NCBI GenBank assembly: GCA_040285825.1
Contig: JAUPSS010000002.1
Location: 2,914,001 to 2,978,000, forward strand
Direction of reading: 5' to 3'
Length of the DNA stretch: 64,000 bases
Source: Eukaryota sp. TZLM1-RC
Taxonomy: Eukaryota > Protista > Metamonada: BaSk clade
Under the pieces are notes generated by a model that did not search any database, was not told where the DNA came from, and was given only the letters and a program-made list of their open reading frames with translations. This document shows, piece after piece, positions 9,407-64,000 of this stretch. Numbering within the stretch: the first letter of the stretch is position 1; each line of letters starts with the position of its first letter. Both the position numbers and the translations under genes were made by a program.

Positions 9407-9579
9407 TTGATTTTTTATTCTTTTGAATAAATTGAATTGAATTGGGGTAAAAACACTAAGACTTTATAGGCTAGATGAAGGGACCTCATCTCCAAAATCG
9501 AGAGAATATGTTGTGATGATACCTTGTGAACACTACTAACTCTCCCTACTAATGTCACTTATTCAACTTTGGAGCACTT

Positions 9580-24505: not shown

Positions 24506-24779
24506 ATCAGAATAATAGTTGATTAAACCTGATGAAGGTGGTCTGTCAATTTCTCCACTATATCCAACAAAATTGATTAATCAAGGTTCTTTTAAATTCT
24601 TTAAACTAATCAAAAATGAATATTCTGTGGAAGTAGCTTCTTTTCCATGGTGGAATCAGTATGCAGCTGAAATATATTTGATCGACTTTCTTCGTGATGT
24701 TAGTTTTGTATATTCATAAATTATAAAATAAAATTAACACAAAATTAACAAATGATATGTTTTTGGTTGAAAAGTAACC

Positions 24780-26118
24780 CAAAATTTGAACAATGTTTTG
24801 AGATCTTGTGCTCCTTCCATAGCATTAGATTTTTGTCGTTCTTTTAATTCATTGAGAACAGAATTTTTTGCTGATTTATTGGATGTAGAACCAAGAATGT
24901 TGAAAAGTCACCTATTTTCTTCAGCAAATTTGGGGGGTATTGGATTTACTAAATCTTCAATTTTGTGTCAATCAGCATTCTTGGGTGGTGGCAAAAATTT
25001 TATTTATGAATTTTCTCGTAGATTTCCTGATGATTCTCATCTGTTAGTTCCCAATTGCAGTCCCTATTTGTATGAGTTATCCTGTGAACTTGAAAAATCG
25101 CCGCCACAAATTTGGACCAAATGTTTTCCTCAATCAATTCAAGAAATTCCAAACCGATCTCTATTTAATTTACAGTTTTGCTGTAAAAAGCTTCAACAAA
25201 AATTGTCAAAGATTTTTGAAAGCTTGGATTTTGATGTTAGACTTGGCTTGGCCAAGAAAAAGAATCCCGCTTTTGCAAATCTTTTGCAAGATAGGTGTGA
25301 CAGTACTTCTTCTGCCTTAGTAACAACAATTCCACAAGTTTTTAGTACTCTCTTATCCGATTCTGCTTGGACTCTGAATATGGGATTTCGTTCCTTTATC
25401 TGGCCTGATAATTTACCTCATAATTTAATTTGTAAATGTTCTCGAGAAATTACAACTACTCATTTGTTAAATTGTAAACATTTTATTACTTTTAGAAGCA
25501 AGGTTCATGATGCTGTAAGAGACCAGTTATATTGTATGTGTAAATCTCATAGAATTGAATCCTTCTTGGAACCTCTGTTGTCAAATCTGTTTGATGCTGA
25601 AGATGATTTTCATAAGAATAATAGAGGTGATGTCATATTACCTGGATTAGATGGAAGCTTCATTTTATTGGATGTAATGTCTGTTGATCCTTGTAATGCC
25701 TCAAATGAAAGGCTTGTTATTTCTGAAATTCATAATCCCTTTTCAAATGCTGAAAATTTTAAATTCAAAAAATACAATGAACCTTTGTCCAAATTGGCCA
25801 TTCTACAGCATGCAAAATACAATTTGTATCCATTTGTATTTTCCCTTTTTGGTTCATTTGCACCAACTGCTTTACGTTTTTTGGATGATTTTGAAATGAT
25901 TGTAAAGAGAAGAACTGGCAGAAATTTCAACAGATTGTTTTGGCAAAATAGAATTGTGTTTTCTATTTTTAAGGGGATGTTGAAGATGGTTTCTGATGCT
26001 TTGCTTTCTCTTGGATCTCACTATGAGAGAGTTGCATCTAGTGTTTTTGTTTTGGGAGAGATGGATTTTTTAGATGTTGATTTATAGGTTTTGAATAAAA
26101 TTAAATTTAAATAAAAAA
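24780..26118 (+). mobile_element. 5'-truncated CRE-like retrotransposon, family C (433-aa uninterrupted ORF remnant)
   Basis: Post-RT VLRSCAP and GGIG motifs, CKC..H..C knuckle, HDAVRD, RGD..D, AE..K.KKY; AATAAA and an A-rich tail. Confidence 0.88.
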
Positions 26119-28833: not shown

Positions 28834-29720
28834 TTTTTTTTTCAAAAATTTAATTTTATTCTAAACCTATAAATCAACATCTAAAAAATCCATCTCTCCC
28901 AAAACAAAAACACTAGATGCAACTCTCTCATAGTGAGATCCAAGAGAAAGCAAAGCATCAGAAACCATCTTCAACATCCCCTTAAAAATAGAAAACACAA
29001 TTCTATTTTGCCAAAACAATCTGTTGACATTTCTGCCAGTTCTTCTCTTTACAATCATTTCAAAATCATCCAAAAACGTAAAGCAGTTGGTGCAAGTGAA
29101 CCAAAAAGGGAAAATACAAATGGATACAAATTGTATTTTGCATGCTGTAGACTGGCCAATTTGGACAAAGGTTCATTGTATTTTTGAATTTAAAATTTTC
29201 AGCATTTGAAAGGGGATTATGAATTTCAGAATTAACAAGCCTTTCATTTGAGGCATTACAAGGATCAACAGACATCACATCCAATAAAATGAAGCTTCCA
29301 TCTAATCCAGGTAATATGACATCACCTCTATTATTCTTATGAAAATCATTTTCAGCATCAAACAGATTTGACAACAAAGGTTCCAAGAAGGATTCAATTC
29401 TATGAGATTTACACATACAATATAACTGGTCTCTTACAGCATCATGAACCTTGCTTCTAAAAGTAATAAAATGTTTACAATTTAACAAATGAGTAGTTGT
29501 AATTTCTCGAGAACATTTACAAATTAAATTATGAGGTAAATTATCAGGCCAGATAAAGGAACGAAATCTCATATTCAGAGTCCAAGCAGAATCGGATAAG
29601 AGAGTACCATAAACTTGTGGAATTGTTGTTACTAAGGCAGAAGAAGTACTGTCACACATATCTTGTAGAAGATTTGCAAAAGCGGGATTCTTTTTCTTGG
29701 CCAAGCCAAGTCTAACATCA
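28834..29720 (-). mobile_element. 5'-truncated family-C retrotransposon inserted in the 3' tail of a family-A copy
   Basis: Near-identical to 25232-26100; a T7-A8/9-CT motif is repeated on both flanks. Confidence 0.85.
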
Positions 29721-29739
29721 TTAAAATTTTTTTAAAAAA

Positions 29740-31437: not shown

Positions 31438-32405
31438 CTATTCCATTGGAGCTTCCTCACTATTATTACTACTCTCGTTCGTTTCCTCCTTTTCCTCTCC
31501 TTCTTCAAACTCTTCTTTCAACTTTCTTTCCAACCGAATCTGGGACTCTCTGTTCAGAATAACATCATGAATAGCAGTGAGTGAACGCCCTATCAAACCC
31601 ATAAGTACAGTGAGTTGGTTTTCATTGGTGAGTTGAGCAAGGTCTTCTTTAACAGCGGTGCTCAACAAAGGTAGGTCGTATAACACTTCTTGTAAAAGAT
31701 TAACAATTTCAGATTTAGGTTTGGGTGTCTTTTCTAAATATTCACATACAATTTCTAAATTTCGAGAAAGAGCAGTTAAACCATTGATCCTCCCCTCCCT
31801 CATGGTACTGAGGTCTGAGATTTCTACTCCTTTAACGTCCCGGAGTAAGTGTTCAATACCAATTTCTTCAGCAATTTGTTGTCCCATTCTGGTCTGAATA
31901 GCGTCAAAGGTTTCAGTTGGTTGTTCACCAGGTGTGCGAGAGGTAACTTGTTTGATGAATGCACGAGCAGGGAACTCTTTCGTCTCCATAACAGTAACTA
32001 AAAGGTAAACAGGATCGATCGGAAGTGACATAAGTCTATGTACAAGTTTGTGGATGGCCAAATCAAGGGCCACTGGAGAAGGACCGGTTGAGTACCAGCC
32101 CACGATCTGTTCTTTGACTGGGATGAGTGTAGGAGAAGAATAACGATACTATTGACTTTTTGTTGCATTTTAAACATTGTTTCTGCAAACTGATGATCGA
32201 ACATCCAGACTTTGGGATCGCGGGGATTTTCTTCAAATGGGACTGCAAAGCAATTTGTTATATCCACAACTCCTCTGTTGACTGTGCCAAGAAGAAGGCC
32301 ACATACACGCTGTTTTGGACCGCGAGAAACACGTTTGTGGTGATCTGATACTGAAAGGAGGACAAGAGGATGTACAATAGCAAGTGATGGAGATGGAGAT
32401 GTCAT
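31438..32405 (-). CDS. RPN8: 26S proteasome lid subunit Rpn8 (PSMD7); one 32-nt intron at 32118-32149
   Basis: VHPLVLLSVSDH..RVCGLLLG..NCFAVPFEE..WMFDH; the splice gives KVNIKEQIVGWYSTGP; also AEEIGIEHLLRDV. Confidence 0.95.
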
Positions 32406-34667
32406 TGAAACAGATGATGTCTTGAACAAGAAATAAGTGTCCTTTTTACACAGATGGACAGAGTTTTTGAGAAGTGGAAGATTTTCTCCTTGATTCCTTT
32501 GTCAACCTTGACTCTCTGCAGGTTTTTCGGTCTATCTCCACCATTTACATGTGCTTCCATCACTGCCAACATATTAAGCGAAGCATTTCGATCTCTATTC
32601 CACAAACTTTCGCATGATTTACACGTGGTAAGCCCGTGACGAATAGACATCTCATGCCTCTTCCATGGCCTAGGATTTCTGCACCATCGGAATGTTTCAA
32701 CTGTTTTCTCCGCTTTCTTACAGTTGAAACAACAGCAACTGGTTCGAAACTCATCAATCAAAAAGACCGTATAACCACCCTTTTTAAATAGAATTCTCAA
32801 CCCTTTTACTTTGCTAGGTTCTTTGAATTTCATGTGTTTTTGCTGTTCCCAGTCTCCGATTCCAATAACTACTTGGCTAGGATCACCAATTACTGATTTG
32901 AGTCTATGAATCATTATTGCCTCAGATCTTGTGCGATTAATCTCCGCCCACCATCTTAGCTTCCTTAATATTTTTTGATGATAGACTTCACCAACAATAC
33001 TATTCACAAAATTCTTTTGTTTAATATACTCCATAAGTCTATCAAACCTGCTGCTTTTGGAATTGAATTGGGATAAAGTTGCTTCCCATTCTGCTACAGA
33101 TTTAGTCGTGTGATCATTGTTTCTCAAATTGAATGAGTAATCAATTTCGTGGGGACTATTGATTTCTTGAGGTACTTCACCTCTTAATAAACTAATTGTT
33201 CTTTCAGTCATTTGATTAATTATACTGCTGCTTAAATCCATTCTTTGTTGTTGCTCTTCATATGGTTCATAATTGGATAGATCAATTCCTCTACCAGTGG
33301 AGTCACTTATTGTGATAAGAGTGTCATTCCATATGATGACTCTTATTCTTTTGAATTTGGAACTTTTCGACTCAAATCTTCATTGATTTTGAGTGTACCT
33401 GAAATGAACGTATTTATCTCTTTCAGGTTTTTTTGACTGAGTCATTCCAGTAGCTAAATTTGCAGAAAAATAGAGTAGATCAGATTTCCCTGGATCAGCA
33501 GCTGCAAGGGTCATATCTTGGAATTCAGAAGGATTGATACTAGGGTCATCAATATATTTTTCTTTATCTTTCATTTCTTTTGCAGTTTCTTTGTACTTTT
33601 TCAAGTCCATTCTAGATTGAATGAATTTACTGCTACCCCATCAGTCTCGATACTAGACATGATGTACTTGGAATTTACTGAATAAAGTTTAGTGTTTTTA
33701 ATCTCGTCCATTTTTAAAAAGGTATTCCATAAAACCAAATCACCAGCTTGGTCATTGCATTGGTAGGACGACCTTGGACCAAGAATGTCCTTGATTTGGA
33801 CAAAGAACAAGTCCAATAACCTTGTCTTGTCAATTCTGCTATACGAGGGAATACAAGAATTCTTCAAAGGCAGAGCATGAAAGAGTTTGCTCTCCTCATT
33901 TTCTGGAAAATTATAAATATAAAACAATGATCTCAAATACAAATTTGATTTTGACGAAAAACAAATTTTGAATACTTATCCCTTTTTGGAACTACTGGAA
34001 AGTAAATGAGGGATCTGGTCATTAATGAAAAGCGAAGTAATTGATGAGACTTTGTTTCTCATTGCAGAAGTTTCGCCATCACCATCTCTACATCCTTCTA
34101 GAAGGAGGGATTTAATTTTGTTGATGAATGATGAGAAGTTTTTCTTATCTTGCTTTTTCAGGACGTTGTTGTTTCTCTTTACATCATAAAAAGCATCAAC
34201 AAACCGATCCAAATAATCAAAGTAATGCTCCTGGATGTTATTTTTGAAATTCACAACCAGTTTGTCAATTGTGTAATACAAAATATTACTGATTGCTTTT
34301 TTTGATTAAACTTTTGGAACAAGTTTTTCTCTCAAGTGTTGGTGATAGAATTCCAACAACGGGGCACAACGAGGATTTTGCTAAGCTGTTTTTGTCCTTG
34401 CGTTAAGGGAACTTCCCTCCTCGCTTTAGGACGTGACCACAAGAAAAGCTTCACGAAATAATTGGGTTTCAATTTTTGGTAAAATAGCATTTGGGTTTAA
34501 GTCAAAAAGATGCAAATAATAACCACAAATGAATTCTAACCAACAATAGAAATTTCCTGACACCTAATTACTGCCTCATCGATCACTTCAATCATTTTCG
34601 GATCTCGGATGAAATTTTTGATGCTATCCTTATAACCATCATAAGGTGTATGTTTAACAGTTTCCAT
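32402..34667 (-). pseudogene. Fanzor1 (eukaryotic TnpB-like RNA-guided nuclease), full length but disrupted by frameshifts and a stop
   Basis: N-terminal KDSIKNFIRD..IDEAVIRC..LPKIE; KNNIQEHYFDYLDRFV; PLKNSCIPSY.RID; SIETDGVAV; RuvC-I AADPGKSDLL; YTQNQ*R; IGDW..KEPSK; RuvC-II IDEFRTSCCCFNC; NPRPW; HGLTTCKSC; RuvC-III WNRDRNASLNM. Confidence 0.9.
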
Positions 34668-36077: not shown

Positions 36078-37707
36078 CAGGGATAACTAAAGTGGTAAAG
36101 TACTTTAAGCACTTTACTTTACTTAACTTTACTTTAAAGAATCTTTTTTTGATAAAGTAGAGTCATCATTATTTGGTTTGACAAACATGTTGTACATTTT
36201 AATAGAGAACATTCTATTTTCGAAATCCTCTTCAAGTAAGGTAACTTTTCAATTCACCATAAGATAACAAAACCTAACATTTATTCAGAAACTCATCAAA
36301 AACTGATTGAAAAATTAAGTATGTGGTGGATGAGCACCAACACTCTTCTACTCATGGATCTCAATTACATCTTCATCGGATGACACCCCGCTACTTACTT
36401 CCAACTCATCAGGTTCATTGGGGACATCTGCACCATTCAGCCAGTCCCAATACTTCTTTGAACTACTTCTTCCTCCTCTGACGTAATGCTTCACCATCAC
36501 ACTATCTGTTGCCCTCTGACTTTCCATTTTGTTTCTTTCTTGTGTACATACAATACGAAAGTCCGACCAGTTTCTTTCAGCTTCTGAGTTTGATGTCACC
36601 ATACTTAACAGTCTCACTGCCAGGTTAGATAGCTCAGTGTTACCGCCATGAACATACCACCATTCATGTGCTACCATTCTGGAAGCTATGTTGAATAGTT
36701 CACTGTGTTCGAATAAATCTGACCCTGCAACATAACAAGACCATTGATGAATGATGTCTGCCTTTTTTGCCCGTCCAAATTGTTCTTCAATCACTCGAAA
36801 CAAAGCATCACGACACTCTTGAAATTGTTGTTCTGTAATTAAATCCCTAAATTCAGGATCCAAACAAAAAGCCGCCCGATGATAGTCGTTGAAGATTTGC
36901 AAAATTCTGAATTCAAATCTCTGAAGAAGTAGACTGTGTTCTTCTTCTGATATAAATGATAGTTGAGTGAGATCCATTCTTTCTTTTTCCATTTGTAGAT
37001 AGCGATACAGTTTGCCCATAATTGGTGTCAAACTATCAATTCTTTGCATGATATTGACAAGTGGTTTCATGAAGTCCACCAATTTTTCCACTTTTGTCCA
37101 ATAGTTTTCATTGGCTAAAATTCTCTTTACGTCACAGAATTCCTGACGTAAACCCCGTTGGAGTTGATGGAGTCTGTGGTGTAAAAGGAGTAAGTGGAGA
37201 AGGACTTGAAAAGGACGGAAGTGCTTGTCTAGGAGCTGGACTATTGATACTGGAAGCTCGTCTTTTGCGTTGTCTAGAATGTGTAGCTAGATACACTCGT
37301 AAGTCTGCAACCTTCTTACCATTGTTACTCTCAGGACACCCTATTTGGTTGCATAACGGTACCTGTCTTTTAGGTAGTAGGTCAGGTACATAATGCCCTT
37401 CCATTGCCCATCGGTTGACAGAATAGACCTCATCGCATAATAGACATTGAAAGCGCGCACAAGTCTTTGAAACAACTTCGTTGACTTGACAGACATTCGT
37501 CCAAGCCTCACAAGGGAGTGAAGTCATTAACAAAAGAAAATATATAAGAAAAATGAAGTGAGAAAGGGGTGGAGAGTAAAGAAAGAAGCGTTCACTACTT
37601 TATACCACTTTAGCCAATTTTAGAGCTTAAAGCTTAAAGTTTAAAGTAAAGCTTAAAGTAAATAAAGTACTTTAATTTCATTTTTTGGACCACTTTAGTC
37701 ATCCCTG
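36078..37707 (-). mobile_element. Internally deleted hAT DNA transposon (1630 bp)
   Basis: 19-bp TIR CAGGGAT(A/G)ACTAAAGTGGT; perfect 8-bp TSD GTGTTTGA (36070-36077, 37708-37715); BED-finger N-terminus (37527-37132) joined out of frame to the hAT dimerisation C-terminus (WWYVHG..LAVRLLS..SNSEAERNWS); subterminal TAAAGT repeats. Confidence 0.95.
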
Positions 37708-41952: not shown

Positions 41953-44348
41953 CACTGTTGGCAGTAATTAGTCTCACTGCCAAATTAGTCTCACTGCAAA
42001 ATTAGTCTGAGTGAGACTAATTTTGTCCAATGACCATCCAAAATCGTTTTTGTGAGACTAATTTTGTCCTGAGTTTCATAAACATTTTTCCAGTACTTTT
42101 TTCGAAAACTTATAAAATTTTGTACCAATCATTTTCTATTCATTTTTTCTCTTACTAATGAACGGTCTTTTCTCGGATTCTCCTCTCGTACAATCTTTTG
42201 CACGGGCTCAATGCTCTAGCACGGCTCACACTACACCTCCTTCTGCAGAAGTAGATACCTCCACTCCTATCGTCTTACCACTTCCTGAAATACAACACCA
42301 TGATGAAAACGCTGTGTTGTCTCCCACTGCAGGAAGGAAGTGGTGGCTGAAATCAACTCCAAGAGGAATGAGAATGGCATGTCTTACGCCAAAGTAGCGA
42401 TGATGCGCTGTGGATTGGGTTTGGACGATGTTGGTAAATGGAGTGTTAAATATCTGAGTCCCCAACTTCAAGCAATTATTTCCAAATACAATGCAAACTT
42501 CAAAGGAGAAAAGCCTCCCGGTTGTTATGAAGATATCTGGGAAGATGTGAGTGACGACGATGATTTCACTGAAGTACAGGGATTCGACGATAATTCAGAG
42601 GAGGAAATTCAAGTAACCGAAGATTTCATAACACAACAGGAGATTACTAAGCTGAAGGATGAAGAAGAGGATGAATGTTATATTTTAGAATAGATTGAGT
42701 GTTTTTTATTGATAAAGATGTTGTTTGTCTGGTGGTCAAAGGAAATAAGGTCGAGACAAAATTAGTCTCACTGCAAAATTAGTCTCAGTACAGAATTAGT
42801 CTCACTGCAAAATTAGTCTGAATGATGAATTTAGATATAAAAAAACACATCAAATTTACCATTATAAGACTGTGTTTTAGTTCCAATTTTAATCATATAT
42901 TTCGATCTACAAATCCTCTCGTCACTAGACCTTTGGCTCAAAAGTTTAATGAGTTACGTGCAAAAGTTCTGTCTCAATTACTGGGATGTAAAATGTTTCA
43001 AATTGCAGATCATGCTTACCTTAGTCCACATTATGGTGGTTTAGGGTGGACGAAGGCTTCTATTCTTACCTCGTGTGCTTTTGTTGGTGGATGCAGAAAT
43101 GCAATCTTTGAGTTTTCCGAAAGATTTGCAGATTGGGAAGATTTATTGATGGCAACGCAAAGTTCCACTGTTTTTGCATTAAATGAAGAAATTTCAAGAA
43201 TTGATGTAGAAAAATGGGGTCGATGTTTTCCCCAATCATTCAATGGCAATATTCAAGAAAAAAATGTTTTAAATTTGAAGTACACTCTTCGAACATTACA
43301 GAAAAGATTGACTGGAATGTATGAAAAAGATCTTTATAATAATATTTGCAGCTCGGCTGTTTTAAATCAAGATCTTCACTCATTGTTATTGGAAAAGGGT
43401 GTTTGTGAAAACAAGGCGTCAGATTCTTCACTTTTTGTAACCATTGTACCACGAAGATTTGGATTGTGGGCCACTAATGAAGCATTTGTAACAAAAATGA
43501 GATTATATTTGAACATTCCCATTAACCAATTATTATCAAAAGAAAAATGTATTTGTTCGAATTCACCTCGACTCACTTTGCGCCATGCTCTAAATTGCTC
43601 TAAATTGATAACTTATCGTTCTTCATTACATGATGCTGTTAGAGACACTGTTTTCAATATGGCACAAACTGCAAGGATATCGTGTATCAAAGAGCCCCTG
43701 CTGAAGGAAACACTTTCTCTGAATAATTTTGGTTCTGATGATAGAGGTGATGTATACTGTGATTGGATTGATAATTCTGAAGCTATTGTTGACTTTGTCT
43801 CATGTAATGTTGCAAACGATACTTTGGTTCACAGAAAAAAACTTAATCCTGTGACTGCTCTTGATTTTAAAGCAAAAGAGAAACATAGAAAATATGATAA
43901 AGAAATTGAAGATGCAAATGTCGATAGAAATACACAGCTGGTTTTTATTGCTTTCCCATTTTCGATAAATGGAAGATTGTCAGTTGAAGCAGAAACTTTT
44001 TTGGATGACTTCCAAAAAATGGTGAAAGAAAAAACAATGAAAAGATTTGATATTTTTTTATGGCGTTCACGGATTCAATTTGCCATTATTAATAGATTAC
44101 CGCGGTTTTTCAATCGAATTAGAGAAGCTTTAGCTAGACAGCAAGCAAATCAAGATTTTGTAGAGGAAATCTTGGTTTAATGATAGTCGTCCCATTAGTT
44201 ATGATTTAATTTAATCAAGTGTGCAAATTTAATAAATACGATTAATTTCTCACTGCAAAATTAGTCTGAGTGAGACTAATATTGTCCGGAAAGCACAAAC
44301 AATTCAGTACAAAATTAGTCTGAGTGAGACCAATTACTGCCAACAGTG
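41953..44348 (+). mobile_element. Internally deleted pogo/Tc1-mariner-like TIR element carrying a nested LINE
   Basis: TA TSD; 26-bp TIR CACTGTTGGCAGTAATT(A/G)GTCTCACT; many subterminal AAATTAGTCT(CACTGC/GAGTGAG) repeats; residual ORF NGMSYAKVAMMRCGLGLD..W..LSPQLQAIISKY resembles the C-terminus of pogo-like transposases; DDE core absent. Confidence 0.8.
42821..44240 (+). mobile_element. 5'-truncated family-B CRE-like retrotransposon (452-aa uninterrupted ORF remnant)
   Basis: IRLCF..HIFRSTNP, GGLG, CICS..H..C, HDAVRD, RGDVYCD, KAKEK..KY; flanked by the duplicated CTCACTGCAAAATTAGTCTG (42801-42820, 44249-44268). Confidence 0.9.
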
Positions 44349-46879: not shown

Positions 46880-47360
46880 TTAAGGTCTTTCATTTCCTTT
46901 AATATACTCATCCACAACATGAATCATATCAAGAACAGCATTGACATTACGATTCCATAGACGTCCACACTTCTTGCAAGTGAGTAGTCCACGTCTAAGG
47001 ACCATTAGAGTCTTTGGTCTCCTATAAGGTCTTGGGTTAGGTACTCGATGTTTCTTTACATTTTCACCTTCTTTCCCCTCGAGTACACATGTATGACATC
47101 GACAACTTGCTCTGTATTCATCCAGCAGCAATGGAAGAAAGTTACTTTTTTTGAACATCTTCGATAACCAACATTCTTTGTAGGTGCTTGATGTTTAAAA
47201 TTGGTTTGCTTCCGATCACCCATCACTACAATGTTATATTTTGGATATCCAAACTTATTTTCAAATACATTCATCCATTTTGCTTCAAACCTCTCTGTGG
47301 CAACGAATCTTCGCAGTTATATGACTCGCAATTCTTTGTTAAAGTAAAAAGCTCCAACAT
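46880..47360 (-). pseudogene. Second Fanzor1 fragment (RuvC-II, zinc finger, RuvC-III region)
   Basis: FENKFG..VMGD..KHQAPTK..LLDEYRASCRCHTC..NPRPYR..GLLTCKKCGRLWNRNVNAVLDM..GNERP. Confidence 0.85.
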
Positions 47361-48115
47361 GGAGACGCCTTCGATGTTTTATTTGGCCCAATTACGTGCC
47401 TCATTATTTGATTTGCAAATGTGGATCAAAAATTTCTCCAAATCATTTGTTTAACTGTAAACATTTTATTACTTTTCGATCAAAAGTCCATGATGCAGTT
47501 AGAGATCAGCTCTATTGTTTGTCTAAATTTCACACAATTGTCTCCTATTTGGAACCATTACTTTCTCGTTTGGTTGATGAAGATACTGTGAATTCTTTTT
47601 TTTGTCGTAACAGAGGTGATTTAATGCTTGCAGGATTTGATGGCACTACTATCTTTAGATCAACTGATGTGTGTATTAATTCTTTCATACCATTAGCTCA
47701 GTCAAAACACAAGAAACCGCTGTCTGTTGCCGAAAATTCTAAAACTGATAAATATAGAGCAAAGTTGGTTTCCTTGAATGCTGAATCTCACACTCATTGT
47801 GTCCTTTGTCCCTTTGCTTTTTCCTTACATGGTACGCTTGGACCAATTGCTTTATCTTTTTTGGATGATTTTATTGAAATTGTAGAACAACGTACATGAA
47901 GAATTTTTGACAAAACGTTTTGACACAACAGAAATGTATTTTCAATTTTTAAAGGTGTTGTTCCGTTATTGTTTTCTGCTTTATTATCTCTTGGTCGCTT
48001 TTATGAAGGAAAAATTTTCAGTCAATTCTTGTTGGCTGATTTGGGATATGAAGATTTAGAATTTTAATTTTTTTGTTTAGTTTCATGAAAGGAATAAATT
48101 AAATTTAAAAATAAA
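47361..48115 (+). mobile_element. 5'-truncated CRE-like retrotransposon (further family), interrupting the second Fanzor
   Basis: LRCFIWP, CKCG..HLFNCKH, HDAVRD, RGDLML, AENSK.DKY; AATAAA tail. Confidence 0.82.
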
Positions 48116-50189: not shown

Positions 50190-51542
50190 CTATAGTAATG
50201 AACAACATCCAATGGTCACTGTCTCATGATCATTATTGACTTCTCCTTTATTGGAATTTGGCCAAATTGAACCGTTATGTCTTATAGCATTATGTCCTGA
50301 GCAATGAGCTGGATGATCAGGTTTGTTTTCTATACAATTTTCATCAGGATCAACTTCCTCCAATTCCACAACAACCTCATGTTCTCCAATCACACTTTGA
50401 AGATTCTGCTTGACTTCATCTAACTCTTGAAATTGATTGAAGTCACCCATCACCGCTTTGGCTAATAAACCACCCATAGCTACATCATTTGCCGGGTCCA
50501 GTATGGGCATAATTGAAAAGTGATGTCCAATACTGCGGAAAACGTCATAGACTGAATTAAGATGGACAAGTCTACCAGTGGGAACGACCTTGTCAATGCA
50601 AATTCCCCTTGTTTGTATTGATTGAAAGACAACTACTAATTCAGAACGAAACTTTTTGAGTAAATTTTTCATCAAATGTTGCATTTTTTCCCAAGAAAAT
50701 GGTAGATCAAGGTCGTAACCTCGAATTAAGTCATCTACTACAATTTCTTCAAGGTAACACAACGTTTTTACTTTGGAGCAAGCTTTCCAAAGTTTAACCT
50801 TGGATTTCTCAGTCAGTTGGTCCTTCATTTGTTCAGGAACGTTCTCCACGCAATAATAGTAGATTTTCTCATCAATGTTCCTTCCTCCAAACCAAAATTC
50901 ATGCTCAACCAACACTTTGAACTGTCCTTCCTTATGTTGGAACACCACCAAGTTGGTCACTGCTTCACCTACGTCAATAATGGCGACTGTCTCTTCTCTA
51001 GAACTATCTAATGATTTGTACAAAAATGAGTGAATCAGGGCAAGTGTTGTGGGGACGAAACATTCCACTGGCAGTTTGTTTTCGCTAAAAGCCGTTTCCA
51101 ACATCTTCTTGTTTTGAGCAAGAGCCTTGGGAAGAACAATTCTGATTCTTAACGTAGATTTTGGCAATAAAGCGATCAATTCATCCTTGATGTGACTAAC
51201 AACAAGGTTGAGCATTTCCTGATGTGAAAAGGTCTTGCATTCGTCAGCTGAGTTGATCCTAAAGAAGAACTTGTTGTCTCTAACAGTGACATTGTTGGCT
51301 AACGTAGAATTTGGAGGGAGAACACCATCGATCAGATGGGTAACAGCAACGAAGGAGTTGATTGCATGCTTTGCTACCTTCCTTTCGGCATCTTGACCCA
51401 TAAACGTTTCTCCACGATCATGAACTAGCAAATTTGAAAGGAAATTCTGTCCATTTTTGAGTTGGAGAACCTTGAGCTGATTGTCATGCTGCAATGCCAA
51501 AGTAATGGCACTAGCACCAATGTCTATGGAGAGGAGTAACAT
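50190..51542 (-). CDS. Degenerate Hsp70-like nucleotide-binding-domain protein (probable pseudo-ATPase) with C-terminal CC-SLL (CaaX)
   Basis: SIDIGAS, AIIDVGEA, FGGRNIDEKI, KL..ACSKVK and DPANDVAMGG indicate an actin-like/Hsp70 fold; NEPTA and GGGT motifs lost; ends IGCCSLL. Confidence 0.75.
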   Translation of the reverse strand: MLLLSIDIGASAITLALQHDNQLKVLQLKNGQNFLSNLLVHDRGETFMGQDAERKVAKHAINSFVAVTHLIDGVLPPNSTLANNVTVRDNKFFFRINSADECKTFSHQEMLNLVVSHIKDELIALLPKSTLRIRIVLPKALAQNKKMLETAFSENKLPVECFVPTTLALIHSFLYKSLDSSREETVAIIDVGEAVTNLVVFQHKEGQFKVLVEHEFWFGGRNIDEKIYYYCVENVPEQMKDQLTEKSKVKLWKACSKVKTLCYLEEIVVDDLIRGYDLDLPFSWEKMQHLMKNLLKKFRSELVVVFQSIQTRGICIDKVVPTGRLVHLNSVYDVFRSIGHHFSIMPILDPANDVAMGGLLAKAVMGDFNQFQELDEVKQNLQSVIGEHEVVVELEEVDPDENCIENKPDHPAHCSGHNAIRHNGSIWPNSNKGEVNNDHETVTIGCCSLL

Positions 51543-51617
51543 TGATGATACCTAAATGTGGTGATCTCTTTTTGGTGATATCGTAAAATTTAACAGTTGG
51601 TCATCTTGCTCGTTTCC

Positions 51618-53216
51618 ATGTCCATAACACTGGGAATAGACTTGGGTACAACCAACACGTGTGTAGCTGTTCATCGGCAGAAGCGTTCACCTAATGGAGG
51701 AATGGTGTATTCCACAGATGTACTTACTGACAGAAGTTCGGGACAGAAACTAATTCCATCAATGGTCGCATTTCACAAAGGACAAGAGAGTGTTGGAGTT
51801 CAAGCTAAGGAAGGTCGCAAGAAGAATGCGGTAAACACTGTTTTTGAAGCCAAAAGGTTTATTGGCAGACGTTACTCGGATCGAGTCGTTCAGACAGCCA
51901 CTGAAACCACCAGATATCCTTTCAAGATCACTAAAGATGGAGTGTTTTCCAACAATGTAGCTTTTGAAGTAACCCATCAAAACCAAAAAATCAAATTGAG
52001 ACCAGAAGAAGTTGCTGCAAAGGTGCTTTCTTATGTTCGCGACTATGCAAGTCATGCTCTAGGTGTTCCATCAATCACCAAGGCCGTCATCACAGTTCCC
52101 GCATATTTTGAAGACTCTCAACGCCAAGCAACAATGGCTGCTGCCAGAGCTGCTGGTTTCCAAGAGGTTCGCTTGATCAATGAACCAACAGCAGCTGCAT
52201 TAGCACTGAAGGAGGAAGATCCAACGACAATTGGTAAACGTGTTTTAGTGTTTGACTTTGGAGGTGGAACGTTCGATGTTTCCATTGTAAAAATTGAGAG
52301 GGAAGATGTCACAGTCTTGGGAACTCACGGAGCTACAGACCTCGGGGGAGCAGATGTGGATCATGTCCTTATGCAATTTTGTGAGAAGAATTGGGCCGCA
52401 GATTCAGATACCAATGATGAACCTACTGGTAGAAAGAAGGAAATGCTCAGAACGGCTATTGAACAGGCAAAATGTGCCCTTTCTGGTAGATCTGAAACTG
52501 AAATTGAAGTGGAAAACTTTGCTGGAGATGAAGACTTGAGGGTTTTGCTTACTCGAAATCAACTGGACTCACTATGTCAAACCCTATACGCTAGAACAAT
52601 GTCAGTTGTTGATGAGCTTTTGAGAGACTTGAAGCTCAAAGCGTCACAAATTGATGTAGTACAATTAGTTGGAGGGTCAAGTAGGATCCTTAAGGTTCAG
52701 GAGCTTTTGAACAAAAAGTTTCCATTAAAGGTGCGGCGTACTGTGAATCCAGACGAGTCGGTGGCTGCTGGGGCCAGTGTTCTGAGTTTGCACTTGCTTA
52801 ACGATGTGAACCCCCATAGTTTGGGTATAAGGGTGGTTTCTAAGTCACCAGTTTCTGAAGTTAATACAATGAGTGTCCTTATCCCACGGAACTCTCGTGT
52901 CCCAGGCCGGTTCTCTGGTACCTACCACACTATTCACGACAATCAAACAAGGATAAGTGTGGATGTTTATCAAGGCGAGGCATCAATTGTGTCACTCAAT
53001 CACTTGCTAGACAAGTTTACTATCACGGATCTTCCCAAATTGCCGGCAGGCAAAGCTAGTATTGAGGTATCAATGATTGTGGATTCCGATGGCATTCTCC
53101 ATGTAACTGCAACAGATCGGTCTTCTTCCTCAAACACAGACACCATCAAAATTGAAAAGATCAGAAACCAGTTCAACATTAGCAAGGGAGAGCTTGCTCC
53201 ATCAAAGCACAGTTAA
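51618..53216 (+). CDS. Divergent Hsp70 lacking the helical lid and EEVD (copy 1)
   Basis: GIDLGTT, EAKRFIG, TVPAYF, INEPTAAAL, DFGGGTFDVS, VGGSSRI, NPDE, DVNPHSLGI, VYQGE, DSDGILHVTA; stops just after SBD-beta. Confidence 0.92.
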   Translation: MSITLGIDLGTTNTCVAVHRQKRSPNGGMVYSTDVLTDRSSGQKLIPSMVAFHKGQESVGVQAKEGRKKNAVNTVFEAKRFIGRRYSDRVVQTATETTRYPFKITKDGVFSNNVAFEVTHQNQKIKLRPEEVAAKVLSYVRDYASHALGVPSITKAVITVPAYFEDSQRQATMAAARAAGFQEVRLINEPTAAALALKEEDPTTIGKRVLVFDFGGGTFDVSIVKIEREDVTVLGTHGATDLGGADVDHVLMQFCEKNWAADSDTNDEPTGRKKEMLRTAIEQAKCALSGRSETEIEVENFAGDEDLRVLLTRNQLDSLCQTLYARTMSVVDELLRDLKLKASQIDVVQLVGGSSRILKVQELLNKKFPLKVRRTVNPDESVAAGASVLSLHLLNDVNPHSLGIRVVSKSPVSEVNTMSVLIPRNSRVPGRFSGTYHTIHDNQTRISVDVYQGEASIVSLNHLLDKFTITDLPKLPAGKASIEVSMIVDSDGILHVTATDRSSSSNTDTIKIEKIRNQFNISKGELAPSKHS

Positions 53217-53883
53217 GAGTTGTACAGTCACCATTCAATGTGGATAAAAGTGCTTTGTTTCAATTTACGTGGGTTTTTGTACATGGAATTGTTTTTGTAC
53301 ATGCAACTATTTATATTTTATATTTATATTTTATATTTTATTCTAAATATAAGATCTTTTAAGAGTCAATGACACCTATATTATTTCGTAAATCAAGCCA
53401 ACCCAATTTGAGTGCTTTTGTTAATTGTGGGTTGTGCTTTTTTTAACCCAACTTGTGGGTTCTATTTTATGCAAAAAATACTTTTCCTAAGATTTTGACA
53501 TCCTATGCCCCTTCAATAAAACTGCCAATATCAAAGACTAGTTTGTTTTCCAAGATTATTTTCAACCAGGATAGTTTTTATTGATTTTTCTCAGATGTCA
53601 AGGTCTAACATAAAGAGTTGTAAATTTCTGTTCAAAACGTGTTAAAAATGCCTTTTGGGAAATTTTCTGAATCTTTAGCAATTAATTGTATTGATGTAGG
53701 GGAGGCAAATTTTGAGGATTCGGAGCTTTAGTTGTGTATTTGATGATTTTTGATTCCTTATTCGCTAAATTCATAAATTTTTTTAAAAAACGTGTAAAGT
53801 GTTATAGCGTTGCTTTTTAGTTATCTGCTATGATCGAAATGACAAGATTCTACAAAATAAATGTTGTGTTTACTTACCACCTC

Positions 53884-55482
53884 TCACCTTTGATGTACAG
53901 GTTCTCTACGTTGCTCTCGGATAATGTACTGATCGCGAACTTTGCCAATCTTAATTGATGCTGAATTGCTCCTATCACGGGAATCTTTGGCAGTGACATG
54001 TAATATTCCATCCGAATCAATGATCATTGTTATTCTGATCATAGCTTCACCCTTAGGCAAAGGTGGTAGGTTTCGAATAATAAAAGTATCTAAAAAGGAG
54101 TTTAAAGAGATTATAGAGGCCTCACCTTGATACACATCTACCGTTATGGATGTTTGATAGTCAAATGCAGTCATATAAACGTCCTCAAATTTACACGGAA
54201 TCTTGGAGTTTCTGGGAATCAGAATGCTCATTGTGTTCTCTTCAGTGGTTGCAGAGCTAGAAACGACTTTGATTCCTAGTGAATGAGGATTCACGTCAAA
54301 CAGTATGTGCTTATGACAGACAGCAGATCCCACAGCTACTGCCTCATCAGGGTTCATGGTTTGTCTAACTTTCCCTTTGAATTTAGAGTTAAGAAGCTCT
54401 TGAATTTTGGTAAGGCGAGAGCTTCCCCCAACAAGCTGTACTATATCAATGTCCTTTGGTTGTAGTTTGGTGTTTACGAGCAGTTCATCAACTATTGAAA
54501 TGCATCTCGAATAAAGCGTCTGGCATAAACTGTTGAGCTGGTCTCTTGTGAAAACAATCTCCAAGTCCTGACCATCTGCATAGCAGTCAACTTCTATTTC
54601 AACTTCATCTCTTCCCATGAGAGATTCTTTTGCACGCTGTACTTCAACTCGTAACATTTCCTTCTTCTTCTCAGTAGGTTGTTTGTTAGTAGAGCTATCC
54701 ACGGCAAAGTTTTTGATACAGTGTTCCATGATTTTGTAGTCAATGTCACCTCCCCCGAGGTCTGTAGCTCCGTGAGTTCCCAAGACTGTGACGTGTTCCC
54801 TCTCAATTTTCACAATGGAAACATCGAACGTTCCACCTCCAAAGTCAAACACTAAAACACGTTTACCAATTGTCGTTGGATCTTCCTCCTTCAGCGCTAA
54901 TGCAGCAGACGTGGCCTCATTGAGCAAGCGAACCTCTTGGAAACCAGCAGCTCTGGCAGCAGCCATTGTTGCTTGGCGTTGAGAGTCCTCAAAATATGCG
55001 GGAACAGTGATGACGGCCTTGGTGATTGATGGAACACCTAGAGCATGACTTGCATAGTCACGAACATAAGAGAGCACTTTTGCAGCAACTTCTTCTGGTC
55101 TCAATTTGATTTTTTGGTTTTGATGGGTTACTTCAAAGGCCACATTGTTGGAAAACACTCCATCTTTAGTGATCTTGAAAGGATATCTGGTGGATTCAGT
55201 GGCTGCCTGAACGATTGGATCCGAGTAACGTCTGCCAATAAACCTTTTTGCTTCAAAAATAGTGTTTGTGGCATTCTTCTTGCGACCTTCCTTAGCTTGA
55301 ACTCCAACAAGCTCTTGTCCTTTGTCTAATGCCACCATTGATGGAATTAGTTTCTGTCCGGTCATAAAGTCTGTCAAAACTTCTGTTGAGAAAAACAATT
55401 CTCCATTAGGTGAACGCTTCTGCCGATGAACAGCTACACACGTGTTGGTTGTACCCAAGTCTATTCCCAGTGTTATGGACAT
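53884..55482 (-). CDS. Divergent Hsp70 lacking the helical lid and EEVD (copy 2)
   Basis: Same motifs as copy 1, with LNEATSAAL replacing INEPTAAAL; N-terminal half near-identical to copy 1, C-terminal half diverged. Confidence 0.92.
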   Translation of the reverse strand: MSITLGIDLGTTNTCVAVHRQKRSPNGELFFSTEVLTDFMTGQKLIPSMVALDKGQELVGVQAKEGRKKNATNTIFEAKRFIGRRYSDPIVQAATESTRYPFKITKDGVFSNNVAFEVTHQNQKIKLRPEEVAAKVLSYVRDYASHALGVPSITKAVITVPAYFEDSQRQATMAAARAAGFQEVRLLNEATSAALALKEEDPTTIGKRVLVFDFGGGTFDVSIVKIEREHVTVLGTHGATDLGGGDIDYKIMEHCIKNFAVDSSTNKQPTEKKKEMLRVEVQRAKESLMGRDEVEIEVDCYADGQDLEIVFTRDQLNSLCQTLYSRCISIVDELLVNTKLQPKDIDIVQLVGGSSRLTKIQELLNSKFKGKVRQTMNPDEAVAVGSAVCHKHILFDVNPHSLGIKVVSSSATTEENTMSILIPRNSKIPCKFEDVYMTAFDYQTSITVDVYQGEASIISLNSFLDTFIIRNLPPLPKGEAMIRITMIIDSDGILHVTAKDSRDRSNSASIKIGKVRDQYIIREQRREPVHQR

Positions 55483-55557
55483 GGAAACAAGCAAGATGAC
55501 CAACTGTTAAATTTTACGATATCACCAAAAAGAGATCACCACATTTAGGTATCATCA

Positions 55558-58392
55558 ATGTTACTCCTCTCCATAGACATTGGTGCTAGTGCCATTACTT
55601 TGGCATTGCAACATGACAATCAGCTCAAGGTTCTCCAACTCAAAAATGGACAGAATTTCCTTTCAAATTTGCTAGTTCATGATTGTGGAGAAACGTTTAT
55701 GGGACAAGATGCTGAAAGGAAGGTAGCAAAGCATGCAACCAACTCCTTCTTTGCTGTTACCCATCTGATCGATGGTGTTCTCCCTCCAAATTCTACGTTA
55801 GCCAACAATGTCACTGTTAAAGACAATAAGTTCTGCTTTACGATCACCTCAGCTGACGAATGCAAGACCTTTTCATCATCACATCAGGAAATGCTCAACC
55901 TTGTTGTTAGTCACATCAAGGATGAATTGATCGCTTTATTACAAAGTTCTACGTTCAGAATCAGAATTGTTCTTCCCAAGGCTCTTGATCAGCACAAGAA
56001 GATGTTGGAAACGGCTTTTAGCGAAAACAAACTGCCCGTGGAATGTTTCGTCCCCACAACACTTGCCCTGATTCACTCATTTATGTACAAATCATTAGAT
56101 AGTTCTAGAGAAGAGACAGTCGCCATTATTGACGTAGGTGAAGCAGTGACCAACTTGGTGGTGTTCCAACATAAAAAAGGACAGTTCAAAGTGTTGGTTG
56201 AGCATGAATTTTGGTTTGGAGGAAGGAACATTGATGAGAAAATCTACGATTATTGCATGGGTAACGTTCCTGAACAAATGAAGGACCAACTGACTGAGAA
56301 ATCCAAGGTTAAACTTTGGAAAGCTTGCTCCAAAGTAAAAACGTTATGTTACCTTGAAGAAATTGTAGTAGATGACTTAATTCGAGGTTACGACCTTGAT
56401 CTACCATTTTCTTGGGAAAATATGGGAAACTTGATCAAGGATTTGCTCAAAAAGTTTCGTTCTGAATTAGTAGTTGTCTTTCAATCAATACAAACAAGGG
56501 GAATTTGCATTGACAAGGTCGTTCCCACTGGTAGACTTGTCCACTTTAGAGCTGTTTATGATACTGTGAAGGAAGCTGCTGGTGGTCTTAATCTTTCTAC
56601 TACCCTTGATACGTCTAATGATGTAGCATGTGGTGGATTGCTGTTCACTAAAGGTCGAAAAGTTGCTTATTCACGACGCTCAATGTTGCTTGAACTACCA
56701 AACAACACCGAAGTGGAGAACCATGGAGAGATTTCTGTAGAGACCAACTGCAGCTCTAATGTCACCCAACTATCAAATTCACCCAAGGTGGAAAGTGACA
56801 CTGACAGCGATATCATCGATGTAAACAAAAAACAAAAGAACTCTGGAAATGGTTTACATCAATCTGCCACTGAATGTTGTTTAGAAACAGTTGATAAAAA
56901 GCAAGATTCTACAACAACCAAAGCAAGTAGTAATAAGATTGGAGCGACTCACACCACAGAAAAACAGCTGTACCCTAATCAGAGCACTCAATGTTCCCCC
57001 GATCTGCTTTCAAAACCAACAAAGACTAAAACAAATTATAATTGTACTGAAAATCGTTTAGAGGTGTGCCAAACGGTACACATTGAACATTGTGTGCAAG
57101 AGCTTCCGAGAGAGAAAGTACATTTGGAGCAAAAACTTGCAGCGATGTCAACTGATCTATCCAAGCTCCTAGAAGAAAATACACTGTTGACACAGCAGTT
57201 GAAGGAAAAGGATAGCTTCGCTCATAATATGGGGTTAGTTATTGAATGCTTGAATGAAGAGACACAAGCTCTTAAAATCCATAAGGACAAAGCATTTATT
57301 GAACTTGAAAAAGTACGGCAAGAACACAGGAAGATGAAACAAGCAAACGAACGATTGCTACAAAAGGTTTTGGTCAAAGATCAGGAAATTTCTCATTTAA
57401 AAGAACAGAATCAAGAACTGAAGTGGCAGTTGAACAAACAGGCTTATTCACACGAAATACAACCTCGACTTGAACGAAAAAACAACAAGTTGAATGATGA
57501 ATCAACAACACTGAAGCACCAACTAGTGGTCAGCGCACAAGTTGATTCAAAACCTGGACTTGCTACTGATGAGCAAAGGACTTTACGAAATCAAGCTTTG
57601 GTACACCACAATGAACACTTCACTGATGAACACCAGTCTAGTCTTGCTTTAAAGGATGTCAAAGGTAAAGGGCTGGCAAGTGATCATATTAAATCAACAT
57701 TGAGGAATCATGTGGGTATTTTGAGTGAAACATGCTCACGTGCTAAGGGACACATTTCATTACACAAGAGTGGCAGCTGCTGCATAGTAGACTATTTAGA
57801 AGTACTGTCACAAAGCGTGTCAGCAATTGAACACTGTTTGAATGGAGACTTGAATGTAACCTCTTTGATGAAAGGAACACAACAAACATCAGAAAACGAA
57901 CTATCCCCCCCAATGGTGACGAAAGCATCCATTGAGCGTGCGACAGTCCCCAAACACAATATCTTGTCTGAAATGACAGTCGCAATACGCTTAATCAATA
58001 CCAATTTTGATTGGACTCTGTATGATTTTGTTGTAAGTTTAGAAGGTCCATGTGTACGACCATTCAATTATAAGTTTACATTCCCAGATCAGCTTGTGCA
58101 TACCTTTGATATATGTCAAGTAATATCAACTGAATTACCCTCAAACGGTAACCTTTACATTGGCGATTGCTTCGTAGTACTCTCTATTAAGAGTGAAAGA
58201 TCTAACATCGTTGGCAAAATTCCTTTGCAAAGTCTATGGGCAGCAAGGATTCAATATTTTACTTTTACAGACCCATCAATTCCAAAAATACATGTCACTC
58301 TCAGTTCCAATTGTGATCTAAAAAGTTATTTCTGTCAAATCCGTGGTGAGTGCAGTAGGAGACATCAATCTTATAGACGGAAATTTGTGTAA
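55558..58392 (+). CDS. Degenerate Hsp70-like NBD plus low-complexity linker, coiled coil and possible C2-like beta domain (944 aa)
   Basis: First ~330 aa near-identical to 50190-51542; heptad-rich region around aa 520-650; beta-rich C-terminus (VVLSIK..IVGKIPLQSL..IHVTLS). Confidence 0.72.
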   Translation: MLLLSIDIGASAITLALQHDNQLKVLQLKNGQNFLSNLLVHDCGETFMGQDAERKVAKHATNSFFAVTHLIDGVLPPNSTLANNVTVKDNKFCFTITSADECKTFSSSHQEMLNLVVSHIKDELIALLQSSTFRIRIVLPKALDQHKKMLETAFSENKLPVECFVPTTLALIHSFMYKSLDSSREETVAIIDVGEAVTNLVVFQHKKGQFKVLVEHEFWFGGRNIDEKIYDYCMGNVPEQMKDQLTEKSKVKLWKACSKVKTLCYLEEIVVDDLIRGYDLDLPFSWENMGNLIKDLLKKFRSELVVVFQSIQTRGICIDKVVPTGRLVHFRAVYDTVKEAAGGLNLSTTLDTSNDVACGGLLFTKGRKVAYSRRSMLLELPNNTEVENHGEISVETNCSSNVTQLSNSPKVESDTDSDIIDVNKKQKNSGNGLHQSATECCLETVDKKQDSTTTKASSNKIGATHTTEKQLYPNQSTQCSPDLLSKPTKTKTNYNCTENRLEVCQTVHIEHCVQELPREKVHLEQKLAAMSTDLSKLLEENTLLTQQLKEKDSFAHNMGLVIECLNEETQALKIHKDKAFIELEKVRQEHRKMKQANERLLQKVLVKDQEISHLKEQNQELKWQLNKQAYSHEIQPRLERKNNKLNDESTTLKHQLVVSAQVDSKPGLATDEQRTLRNQALVHHNEHFTDEHQSSLALKDVKGKGLASDHIKSTLRNHVGILSETCSRAKGHISLHKSGSCCIVDYLEVLSQSVSAIEHCLNGDLNVTSLMKGTQQTSENELSPPMVTKASIERATVPKHNILSEMTVAIRLINTNFDWTLYDFVVSLEGPCVRPFNYKFTFPDQLVHTFDICQVISTELPSNGNLYIGDCFVVLSIKSERSNIVGKIPLQSLWAARIQYFTFTDPSIPKIHVTLSSNCDLKSYFCQIRGECSRRHQSYRRKFV

Positions 58393-63134: not shown

Positions 63135-64000
63135 TTTTTGACTGGAATTCTTATTGAGAAACAAAACCCCATCTAGAATTCAATATTCTCCAAACAAGCG
63201 TCACTATTACTAAACCTACTCACAGCATTACGTTCATTTTCTACACCAATAGCTAAAAGTGCCTTTGAAATCATTGTTGGAATTGACTTCAAAATGCAAA
63301 AAACAATTCTATTTAACCTGAAAGTGGAATTCATTGTTTTACCAGACCTATTCAGTAACACTTCTTTGAAATTTTCAAAAAAAATGCAACCCTGAAGGTC
63401 CAATATTGCCAAAAAGAGAAATTGCAAACGGTACAAACAGATATTTCACATATTCCACTCTACCTAACTGTGCCAAAGGTTCTTCATATTTTTTATCTTC
63501 TTTTTTTCGGCGTTAGATAACAGCGAATCAGCGGAATACACTAAACGAGCAGCATCATTTTTGCAAACATCAATTGAGACAAGATCCACAACATTGAGAA
63601 CACCATCGATTCCTAGAGCTACTAAATCTGCCCGTCTTTTACCAAAAGAATCATCAGTTTGATCTGAAGACAGCTTATGTACTGATAGCTCAATAAATGC
63701 CTCTATATTGAAACTTTTGCCCATGGCATATAATTGATCACGAACTGAGTCATGAACAAGTGAGCAAAAAGTTATAAAATACTTACAGTTTAAAATATGG
63801 GAAAGCGTAACAACACTCTTGCAGCCACAAATTAAATCATTTGGCAAAGAACAAAGCCATAGAAAACATCTCATTCTCATTGCAGTGGTCCATTGGTGAT
63901 CATTGAGTAGAAGGCCATAAATGTTGGGAATTTGGAAGATTAGGCAACTTGAGCAACTGTCTTCAAGATCAATCAAAAAGTTTGCAAAAACGGGATTTTT
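63135..64000 (-). mobile_element. Family-A CRE-like retrotransposon fragment (runs off the window edge)
   Basis: Near-identical to 29740-30600; CGC..H..C, HDSVRD, RRADLV. Confidence 0.85.

Follow-up and report, generated by a model that had tools for sequence, protein, structure and literature searches.

The question raised by the locus described here is whether two unlike genes of Hsp70 fold, placed head to head in two cassettes, encode partners in one system or are neighbours only. The locus lies in a stretch of 64,000 nucleotides (the window) from Eukaryota sp. TZLM1-RC, which we take to be a skoliomonad (assembly GCA_040285825.1, contig JAUPSS010000002.1, positions 2,914,001 to 2,978,000). 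Each cassette holds a lid-less Hsp70 (Hsp70 A or B) and a degenerate Hsp70-like protein, here called its partner (partner A or B), and the cassettes are mirror images in the order partner A, 75 bp, Hsp70 A, 667 bp, Hsp70 B, 75 bp, partner B. This layout was given in a preliminary description of the DNA, and every coordinate, both 75-bp gaps and the 667-bp spacer hold. All four open reading frames (ORFs) are uninterrupted. The answer tentatively preferred, at somewhat short of an even chance and by analogy with Ssz1 of the RAC (ribosome-associated complex), is that the partner is a membrane-tethered pseudo-ATPase adaptor serving a dedicated lid-less Hsp70. The nearest named relatives of both gene types, which may be orthologues or paralogues, are in the Eukaryota sp. 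GEM-RC1, TZLM1-RC and TZLM3-RCL assemblies, and GEM-RC and TZLM3-RCL are skoliomonads, free-living metamonads of soda lakes (PMC11316075).

Two mirrored cassettes of Hsp70-fold genes

Hsp70 A and Hsp70 B matched the Pfam HSP70 profile with E-values of 1e-127 and 1e-122 over profile positions 2-500 of 599, without the lid. Among solved structures Hsp70 A scored best with cytosolic Hsp70 (315 bits), followed by BiP (308), Ssb (306), DnaK (280-288) and mitochondrial Hsp70 (273). The catalytic residues D10, K71, E175, D199 and T204 are kept in both proteins, and the beta part of the substrate-binding domain (SBD) is present (E 5e-19 to solved SBDs), but the helical lid and an EEVD or KDEL terminus are missing from both. 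The preliminary description was right about the ATPase motifs, the SBD-beta and these losses, with the correction that Hsp70 B has NEATS instead of NEPTA; Q and M also stand here in place of E268 and S275 of canonical Hsp70s (Hsc70 numbering), and two nucleotide contacts are missing. Among the residues listed for the allosteric interface of Hsp70 (R151, R167, D326, V389, D393, K414 and D481; PMC6843406), R151, R167, D393 and D481 are kept in both proteins, K414 is R, V389 is H, and D326 is found in Hsp70 A only. From the glycine of the last ATPase helix to the linker aspartate there are 10 residues in all four lid-less proteins, 18 in three DnaK rows and 19-25 in five eukaryotic rows, making the linker region of Hsp70 A and B 8-15 residues short, and the first SBD loop holds a 7-residue insert. 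GEMRC1_006416, a GEM-RC1 homologue, stops at the same point and has no lid either. A spliced lid was rejected because no lid exon was found in the 667-bp spacer, where no run without a stop exceeds 51 codons and three lid queries gave no tblastn match.

The position of Hsp70 A and B was unstable in quick trees. The DnaK-type GPKH insert in lobe IIB, presumably a mitochondrial and DnaK signature, is missing from them, a gap which they have in common with the cytosolic rows of the alignment. This indel argues against a hidden mitochondrial Hsp70, and by sequence the two proteins are of cytosolic type. The point matters in a group reported to have extremely reduced mitochondrial organelles (PMC11316075). 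Worm Hsc70 without its lid retains ATP hydrolysis and J-protein binding and loses substrate folding (PMC3315512), and by this analogy a general foldase role is unlikely for Hsp70 A and B. Substrate-cleft positions vary among the paralogues (YHTIH, YMTAF and YVTTA), and a viral scan with the Hsp70 SBD gave no match. Amino acids 1-144 of GEMRC1_006416 (P0003) appear RRM-like by eye and have no Pfam match, and may be a true fusion or a merged gene model. Hsp70 B has been filed in a protein cluster of unrelated ENA peptides of 38-40 amino acids, a database clustering error hiding it from homologue searches.

The partners match the Pfam HSP70 profile in the ATPase domain only (E 2e-13 and 3e-14 for A and B), with the match ending at amino acids 327-360, and past residue ~360 they have no similarity to each other. 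The ATPase domain was modelled by AlphaFold, from a 30-row alignment including other Hsp70-fold proteins, as a complete Hsp70 ATPase fold with a predicted local distance difference test score (pLDDT) of 91, and the partner A model reached Foldseek template modelling (TM) scores of 0.66-0.85 with Hsp70-family ATPase domains. The closest structures were ATP-bound (BiP-ATP, TM 0.85; Ssz1, 0.81), a result that was not used since the alignment contained Hsp110-like rows. In the partner family K71 is replaced by T-H, E175 is lost and bulky residues are found in both glycine loops, and ATP hydrolysis has likely been lost; D-x-G is invariant in both phosphate loops and an LD-P-x-x-D-V-x-x-G helix is conserved. 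An Hsp70/actin-like domain with lost catalytic motifs had been recognised from the start, while the retained D-x-G had been overlooked.

A HMMER scan with the partner gave 102 matches, and the best five after the query (E 2e-65 to 5e-17) were all from TZLM1-RC or GEM-RC1; generic Hsp70s started at E 2e-9, and three further distant skoliomonad proteins were among the weak matches. Distant family members are 29-39% identical, and among relatives at 30-35% identity 21 columns are invariant. By these searches the family is found only in skoliomonads, with the proviso that a missing match is not absence, word-based searches having missed members caught by the full HMMER scan. In three quick trees (29 and 33 rows picked from about 225 proteins, with a composition warning) the partners grouped with HSPA14-like rows on the atypical side, at values of 97-98 in the Shimodaira-Hasegawa-like approximate likelihood-ratio test (SH-aLRT), where one of the three reference rows (P0201) is named HSPA14-like. 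The degenerate Hsp70 ATPase domains P0175 and P0199 from GEM-RC1 and P0179 from TZLM3-RCL also fall within the family when placed in a quick tree (SH-aLRT 99, with warnings on composition and long branches). A metagenomic and a viral scan with the partner alignment each found a single locus, on what is apparently one 8171-bp contig (L001 and L002); this candidate member was rejected as an Hsp110-like gene with 29% identity over 95 amino acids. The gene lies at L001 4452-6332 (+), and the contig was binned as giant virus by IMG/VR.

Different predicted anchors, missing from the preliminary description, follow the ATPase domains of the two partners. Partner A ends in CCSLL, a CaaX motif (CSLL) preceded by a second cysteine, and we take ends of the CSLL type to be geranylgeranylated elsewhere. 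CaaX-like ends were found in 2 of the 31 window ORFs, and cysteine-motif ends in two of nine skoliomonad pseudo-ATPases against none of 93 other Hsp70-fold matches; no remnant of a longer tail was found beyond partner A. The distant relative RCL1_005165 has a plan like that of partner B, with pseudo-ATPase, linker and a coil, here charged, before its C-terminal RKSWFRRIFCCC with the triple cysteine CCC. Amino acids ~500-640 of partner B have an E/K/Q/R/L fraction of 0.46-0.64 and a weak Csm1_N match under the cut-off (E 7e-4). Its C-terminal domain, modelled from the single sequence at pLDDT 46, has eight strands of at least three residues. C2 domains dominated the Foldseek list for this domain (best E 7e-3, none below 0.001) and also the VIA-align comparison with 48,161 chains (best Z 7.6, root-mean-square deviation 3.6, 107 aligned), where a Z under 8 may mean a common fold only; for some of the listed proteins it is the aligned range that we take to be C2, TEP1r being a clear exception. 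Pfam gave no C2 match in partner B, and the ESM Atlas no usable match for the C-terminal domain. The predicted tails, that is CCSLL, the C2-like domain and CCC, point to membrane anchoring of the partner family. A calcineurin-like phosphatase of 594 amino acids in the window (26976-28760, minus strand) has a CaaX-like end, CSLM, which suggests that the organism uses such ends.

The inverted repeat spans the junction only and not the whole cassette. A change-point fit (log-likelihood gain 283) delimited a 1.8-kb tract, 50563-52351, with 95% identity between the cassettes and flanks of 61% and 60%. Outside the tract the proportions of synonymous (pS) and nonsynonymous (pN) differences are 0.81-0.85 and 0.28-0.32 for the Hsp70s, which is synonymous saturation, and 0.72 and 0.44 for amino acids 331-362 of the partners, their last helix. 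The SBDs of Hsp70 A and B are 61% identical to one another and 58% and 62% identical to GEMRC1_006416, and as these identities are comparable the duplication would be approximately as old as the split from GEMRC1_006416. Read from these divergences, the cassette duplication is old and both genes of both cassettes have been kept since. Synonymous saturation outside the tract together with a near-identical junction makes it likely that later gene conversion homogenised the junction, explaining the near-identical intergenic DNA. A recent duplication of the whole cassette was rejected because of the saturated synonymous sites, and an assembly artefact because the copies are only 60% identical outside the tract. 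Inversion of the middle segment via the repeat arms could swap SBD and partner-tail neighbours; no joint marking such an inversion was found in three low-depth DNA runs from one sample.

The 75-bp gaps differ at a single position, and the near-identity noted in the preliminary description is real, but it is not independent evidence of conserved regulation because the gaps sit inside the 95%-identical tract, where by our own arithmetic a 74/75 match has a chance of ~10%. All six other divergent gaps in the window (between ORFs of at least 100 amino acids, transposon ORFs counted) measure 241-2794 bp. The paired genes likely share one promoter in the 75-bp gap, in which no heat-shock element was found, and are co-transcribed.

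Readings of the paired genes

If the partner is a tethered adaptor, each cassette would supply two products transcribed from the 75-bp gap, a lid-less Hsp70 whose catalytic residues are kept and a pseudo-ATPase domain of Hsp70 type that bears a predicted membrane anchor. The pseudo-ATPase would bind the Hsp70 by ATPase-domain contact and hold it at the membrane, where the Hsp70 would be a local remodeller of a specific target and not a general folding chaperone, as suggested by the activities that the lid-less Hsc70 retains without folding (PMC3315512). The two cassettes would be two versions, with ATPase domains kept matched by conversion and with SBDs and anchors diverged. A wider proposal, rather unlikely as a whole, is that skoliomonads turned a cofactor-type Hsp70 domain into anchored pseudo-ATPases (prenyl, C2 or triple cysteine), each recruiting a dedicated lid-less, short-linker Hsp70 by ATPase-domain contact as a membrane counterpart of RAC, and that conversion keeps the coupling surfaces matched while target specificity diverges. 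The two-component module of the preliminary description survives in part: since both cassettes are old, the four ORFs intact and the partner family conserved, the arrangement of an active Hsp70 with a pseudo-ATPase appears to have been maintained, but the exchange-factor role also offered for the partner is weakened.

Linkage of the two gene types was sought in GEM-RC1, where the lid-less Hsp70s have locus tags 6416 and 6525 and the family genes 6537, 6673, 6692, 6893 and 8174, with 6403 placed by accession offset only. A family gene is found 12-13 tags away from each lid-less Hsp70, the order being partner-Hsp70...Hsp70-partner as in the window, and 13-tag windows round the six family genes comprise 148 of 14,268 tags (~1%, assuming uniform tags and taking the gene count to be that of GEM-RC). 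The linkage is loose at best; unlinked homologues elsewhere would, by the preliminary description, refute its module, and the GEM-RC1 homologues go half way towards this, lying near each other but not head to head.

Several points weigh against an adaptor. The GEM-RC1 homologues are not adjacent (6416 against the inferred 6403, and 6525 against 6537), the two cases, being 92-98% identical, probably go back to a single recent duplication and paralogues cluster, and no lid-less Hsp70 was found near four of the six GEM-RC1 family tags or the TZLM1-RC gene by a search that can miss members. At the place of the head-to-head partner, GEMRC1_006416 carries its 144-amino-acid N-terminal extension. A cysteine motif is missing from seven of nine partner-family members, and the probable C2 assignment draws on the pLDDT 46 model with Z below 8. 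Compared in pairs, four family members are not significantly alike in their C-terminal domains (Z no higher than 1.8), those of P0122, P0123 and P0124 being beta-rich but not significantly like one another or partner B. The dN/dS of the partners within the tract is ~0.5, with borderline purifying selection (p 0.04-0.09). The partner stem in the tree is 2.0-3.7 substitutions/site, and by approximately unbiased (AU) tests both Hsp110 (p 0.37) and lid-less Hsp70 (p 0.21) stay acceptable as sister of the partners. Giardia promoters are inherently bidirectional in transcription (PMC1885649), and by this analogy a short divergent gap need not signal partnership.

The main rival, a real if doubtful possibility, is that the genes are neighbours and not partners: two atypical Hsp70 families, each evolving independently, were brought together once on a bidirectional promoter, and after duplication of the pair the junction is recopied by conversion, with the pseudo-ATPase as a membrane scaffold for other clients. 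Conversion accounts for the shared intergenic DNA, the separation of the GEM-RC1 homologues would be expected, there are more tags of the pseudo-ATPase family (6) than of lid-less Hsp70s found (2), and the window locus is a single origin of adjacency, not two. This rival fits less well with an adjacency that outlasted synonymous saturation amid many transposon remnants, or with a loose linkage that recurs in GEM-RC1 at the ~1% chance given above.

Improbable is a defence module with the variable anchored pseudo-ATPase as decoy or sensor and the lid-less Hsp70 as executor, like the paired immune receptors to which the locus was initially compared. Its head-to-head layout and fast divergence, the at least six GEM-RC1 copies of which several are fragmentary, and the paralogue differences at substrate-cleft positions would agree with such a role, but the fragments may reflect assembly errors, pN is well below pS with no excess amino-acid change, and the locus has no tie to infection. 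No STAND/NB-ARC, repeat sensor or other known sensing or signalling domain was found in Pfam scans up to E 1, leaving the immune-receptor analogy without direct support.

That the partner is a cut-down Hsp110, and a dedicated nucleotide-exchange factor for the Hsp70, is very unlikely. The partner-family profile ranks Hsp105 (49.5 bits) and Sse1 (47.9) highest among solved structures, but Hsp105 leads Sse1 by ~2 bits only and Ssb1 scores alike (47.4); D-x-G-H and GGR-x-D motifs are like those of Hsp110 rows and the AU test allows the placement, but the best trees do not put the partner with Hsp110. The beta-sandwich and helical bundle of Hsp110 are missing from the partner, and since Hsp110 also needs its bundle, by conserved contacts, to open Hsp70 (PMC4753570), exchange-factor activity is unlikely. 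Scarcely credible are functionless decaying duplicates, in spite of the lost catalytic motifs, the borderline dN/dS in the tract and the short partner A, since frames of 450 and 944 codons are open, relatives have their invariant columns, the full fold is modelled at high confidence and no trace of a longer tail lies behind partner A.

If the tethered adaptor is real, Hsp70 action would be localised in a new way, by nothing more than a pseudo-ATPase domain and its lipid anchor, and the system would test whether contact between ATPase domains suffices to regulate an Hsp70. A natural lid-less Hsp70 with a shortened linker region is a ready-made test of linker and lid in allostery.

Features of the locus and of the window

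Table 1. Positions in the window of the two cassettes and of the segments discussed.
Feature	Positions	Strand	Description	Evidence
Partner A	50190-51542	-	450 aa (amino acids); aa 1-360 a degenerate Hsp70 ATPase domain, then an acidic tail, with CCSLL at the C-terminus	Sequence, Pfam, AlphaFold, Foldseek
Partner A CCSLL	50193-50207	-	CaaX-like with adjacent cysteine (predicted)	Sequence
Homogenised tract, copy A	50563-52351	.	Partner aa 1-327, intergenic region, Hsp70 aa 1-245; likely gene conversion
Intergenic region A	51543-51617	.	75 bp, divergent; shared promoter presumed; no heat-shock element
Hsp70 A	51618-53216	+	532 aa; intact catalytic motifs and SBD-beta, short linker region; lid and EEVD/KDEL absent
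Spacer between converging Hsp70 genes	53217-53883	.	667 bp, AT-rich, 30% GC; no lid exon
Hsp70 B	53884-55482	-	532 aa; architecture as Hsp70 A; SBD 61% identical to A; NEATS replaces NEPTA
Homogenised tract, copy B	54749-56543	.	Opposite in orientation to copy A; ends taken from the repeat arms
Intergenic region B	55483-55557	.	75 bp, divergent; 1/75 positions unlike region A
Partner B	55558-58392	+	944 aa; degenerate ATPase domain followed by a low-complexity linker, a probable coiled coil and, at the C-terminus, a C2-like domain
Partner B coiled coil	57055-57477	+	Probable; aa ~500-640	Composition, weak Csm1_N match
Partner B C2-like beta-sandwich	57958-58338	+	Predicted	Low-confidence model

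The DNA of the window is compact and eukaryotic, its eIF2B, kinesin, TFIIB, Rft1 and striatin-like genes lying amid transposon remnants. A TnpB/Fanzor-like ORF (32402-33379, -) with a Cas12f1-like TNB domain (E 4e-6) ends where a proteasome Rpn8-like gene starts, and a shorter look-alike remnant at 46880-47158 (-) has no Pfam match. A hAT transposase remnant lies at 36348-37599 (-, E 1e-5). Related ORFs recur at 8814-9455, 24771-26087, 29066-29731, 42822-44180, 47348-47899 and 63464-64000; the three scanned gave no Pfam match, and by eye these ORFs are zinc-knuckle and endonuclease ends of non-LTR (long terminal repeat) retrotransposons. The sole Pfam match of a 694-aa ORF (22421-24505, +) is a weak SIR2_2 match below the cut-off (E 8e-4), of a SIR2-like type known from prokaryotic defence proteins. 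A leucine-rich ORF of 421 aa (18756-20021, -) is F-box/LRR-like (leucine-rich repeat) by eye and has no Pfam match at E 0.001.

Comparison with known Hsp70 systems

No published description of the partner family, its anchors or the pairing was found in the literature searched; the genes may appear in the Hsp70 tree in the supplement to PMC11316075, and six motifs from named relatives had no match in the partly shortened text of its supplementary file 3. Paired nucleotide-binding leucine-rich repeat receptors differ from the locus, where the Pfam scans gave no STAND/NB-ARC ATPase, repeat sensor or signalling domain. The inverted hsp70 pairs of Drosophila are near-identical canonical genes homogenised by gene conversion. 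The cassettes resemble them as inverted copies under likely conversion, but here each unit combines two unlike atypical proteins, and homogenisation is confined to 1.8 kb centred on the junction. With canonical HSPA1/HSPA8, Hsp70 A has in common its best solved-structure match, the catalytic and most of the interface residues and the cytosolic-type indel, whereas Hsp70 A and B differ in having no lid, no EEVD, a short linker region and the SBD-loop insert.

In the Hsp110-Hsp70 complex the ATPase domains face each other and hydrolysis by the cofactor is dispensable (PMC4753570), and the pseudo-ATPase partner likewise would face the Hsp70 ATPase domain without hydrolysis of its own. The known Hsp70-fold cofactors Hsp110 and Ssz1 retain a substrate-binding domain, unlike the partners, which have neither the beta-sandwich nor the helical bundle of Hsp110/Sse1 and Grp170. 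We know of no Hsp110 genes arranged as head-to-head pairs with a dedicated Hsp70. Lid-less and SBD-less Hsp70s are known in HSPA12, HSPA14, HSPA13 and YegD, and HSPA13/STCH, E. coli YegD and bacterial DnaK derivatives have no Hsp70 domain other than the ATPase domain, and many carry unrelated additions at their ends (PMC13580251). In the excerpts of that source neither a CaaX or C2 anchor nor pairing with a lid-less Hsp70 is described for the SBD-less derivatives, and they differ further from the partners, where K71, E175 and both glycine loops are gone.

Ssz1, which hydrolyses no ATP, helps to position Ssb; it keeps its SBD-beta, and its extended linker wraps Zuo1 (PMC10191838). The Ssz1-Ssb contact is partly via the ATPase domains (PMC13580251). 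The likeness to Ssz1 and RAC is that of a non-hydrolysing Hsp70-fold protein localising and serving an active Hsp70, and the partner groups with HSPA14-like rows in the three quick trees, on a very long stem. A scan of 24 ORFs of the window turned up no J-protein gene. The partner differs from Ssz1, whose SBD-beta is completed by Zuo1, in having no SBD and a predicted membrane anchor instead. The lid is missing from Ssz1/HSPA14 and from Hsp70 A and B alike, but in the latter the sites are intact and the linker is shorter, not extended, and here the catalytic motifs survive in the lid-less protein of the pair. The partner family, its predicted anchors and the pairing appear to be new, while lid-less and SBD-less Hsp70s and the theme of an atypical Hsp70 with an Hsp70 were already known.

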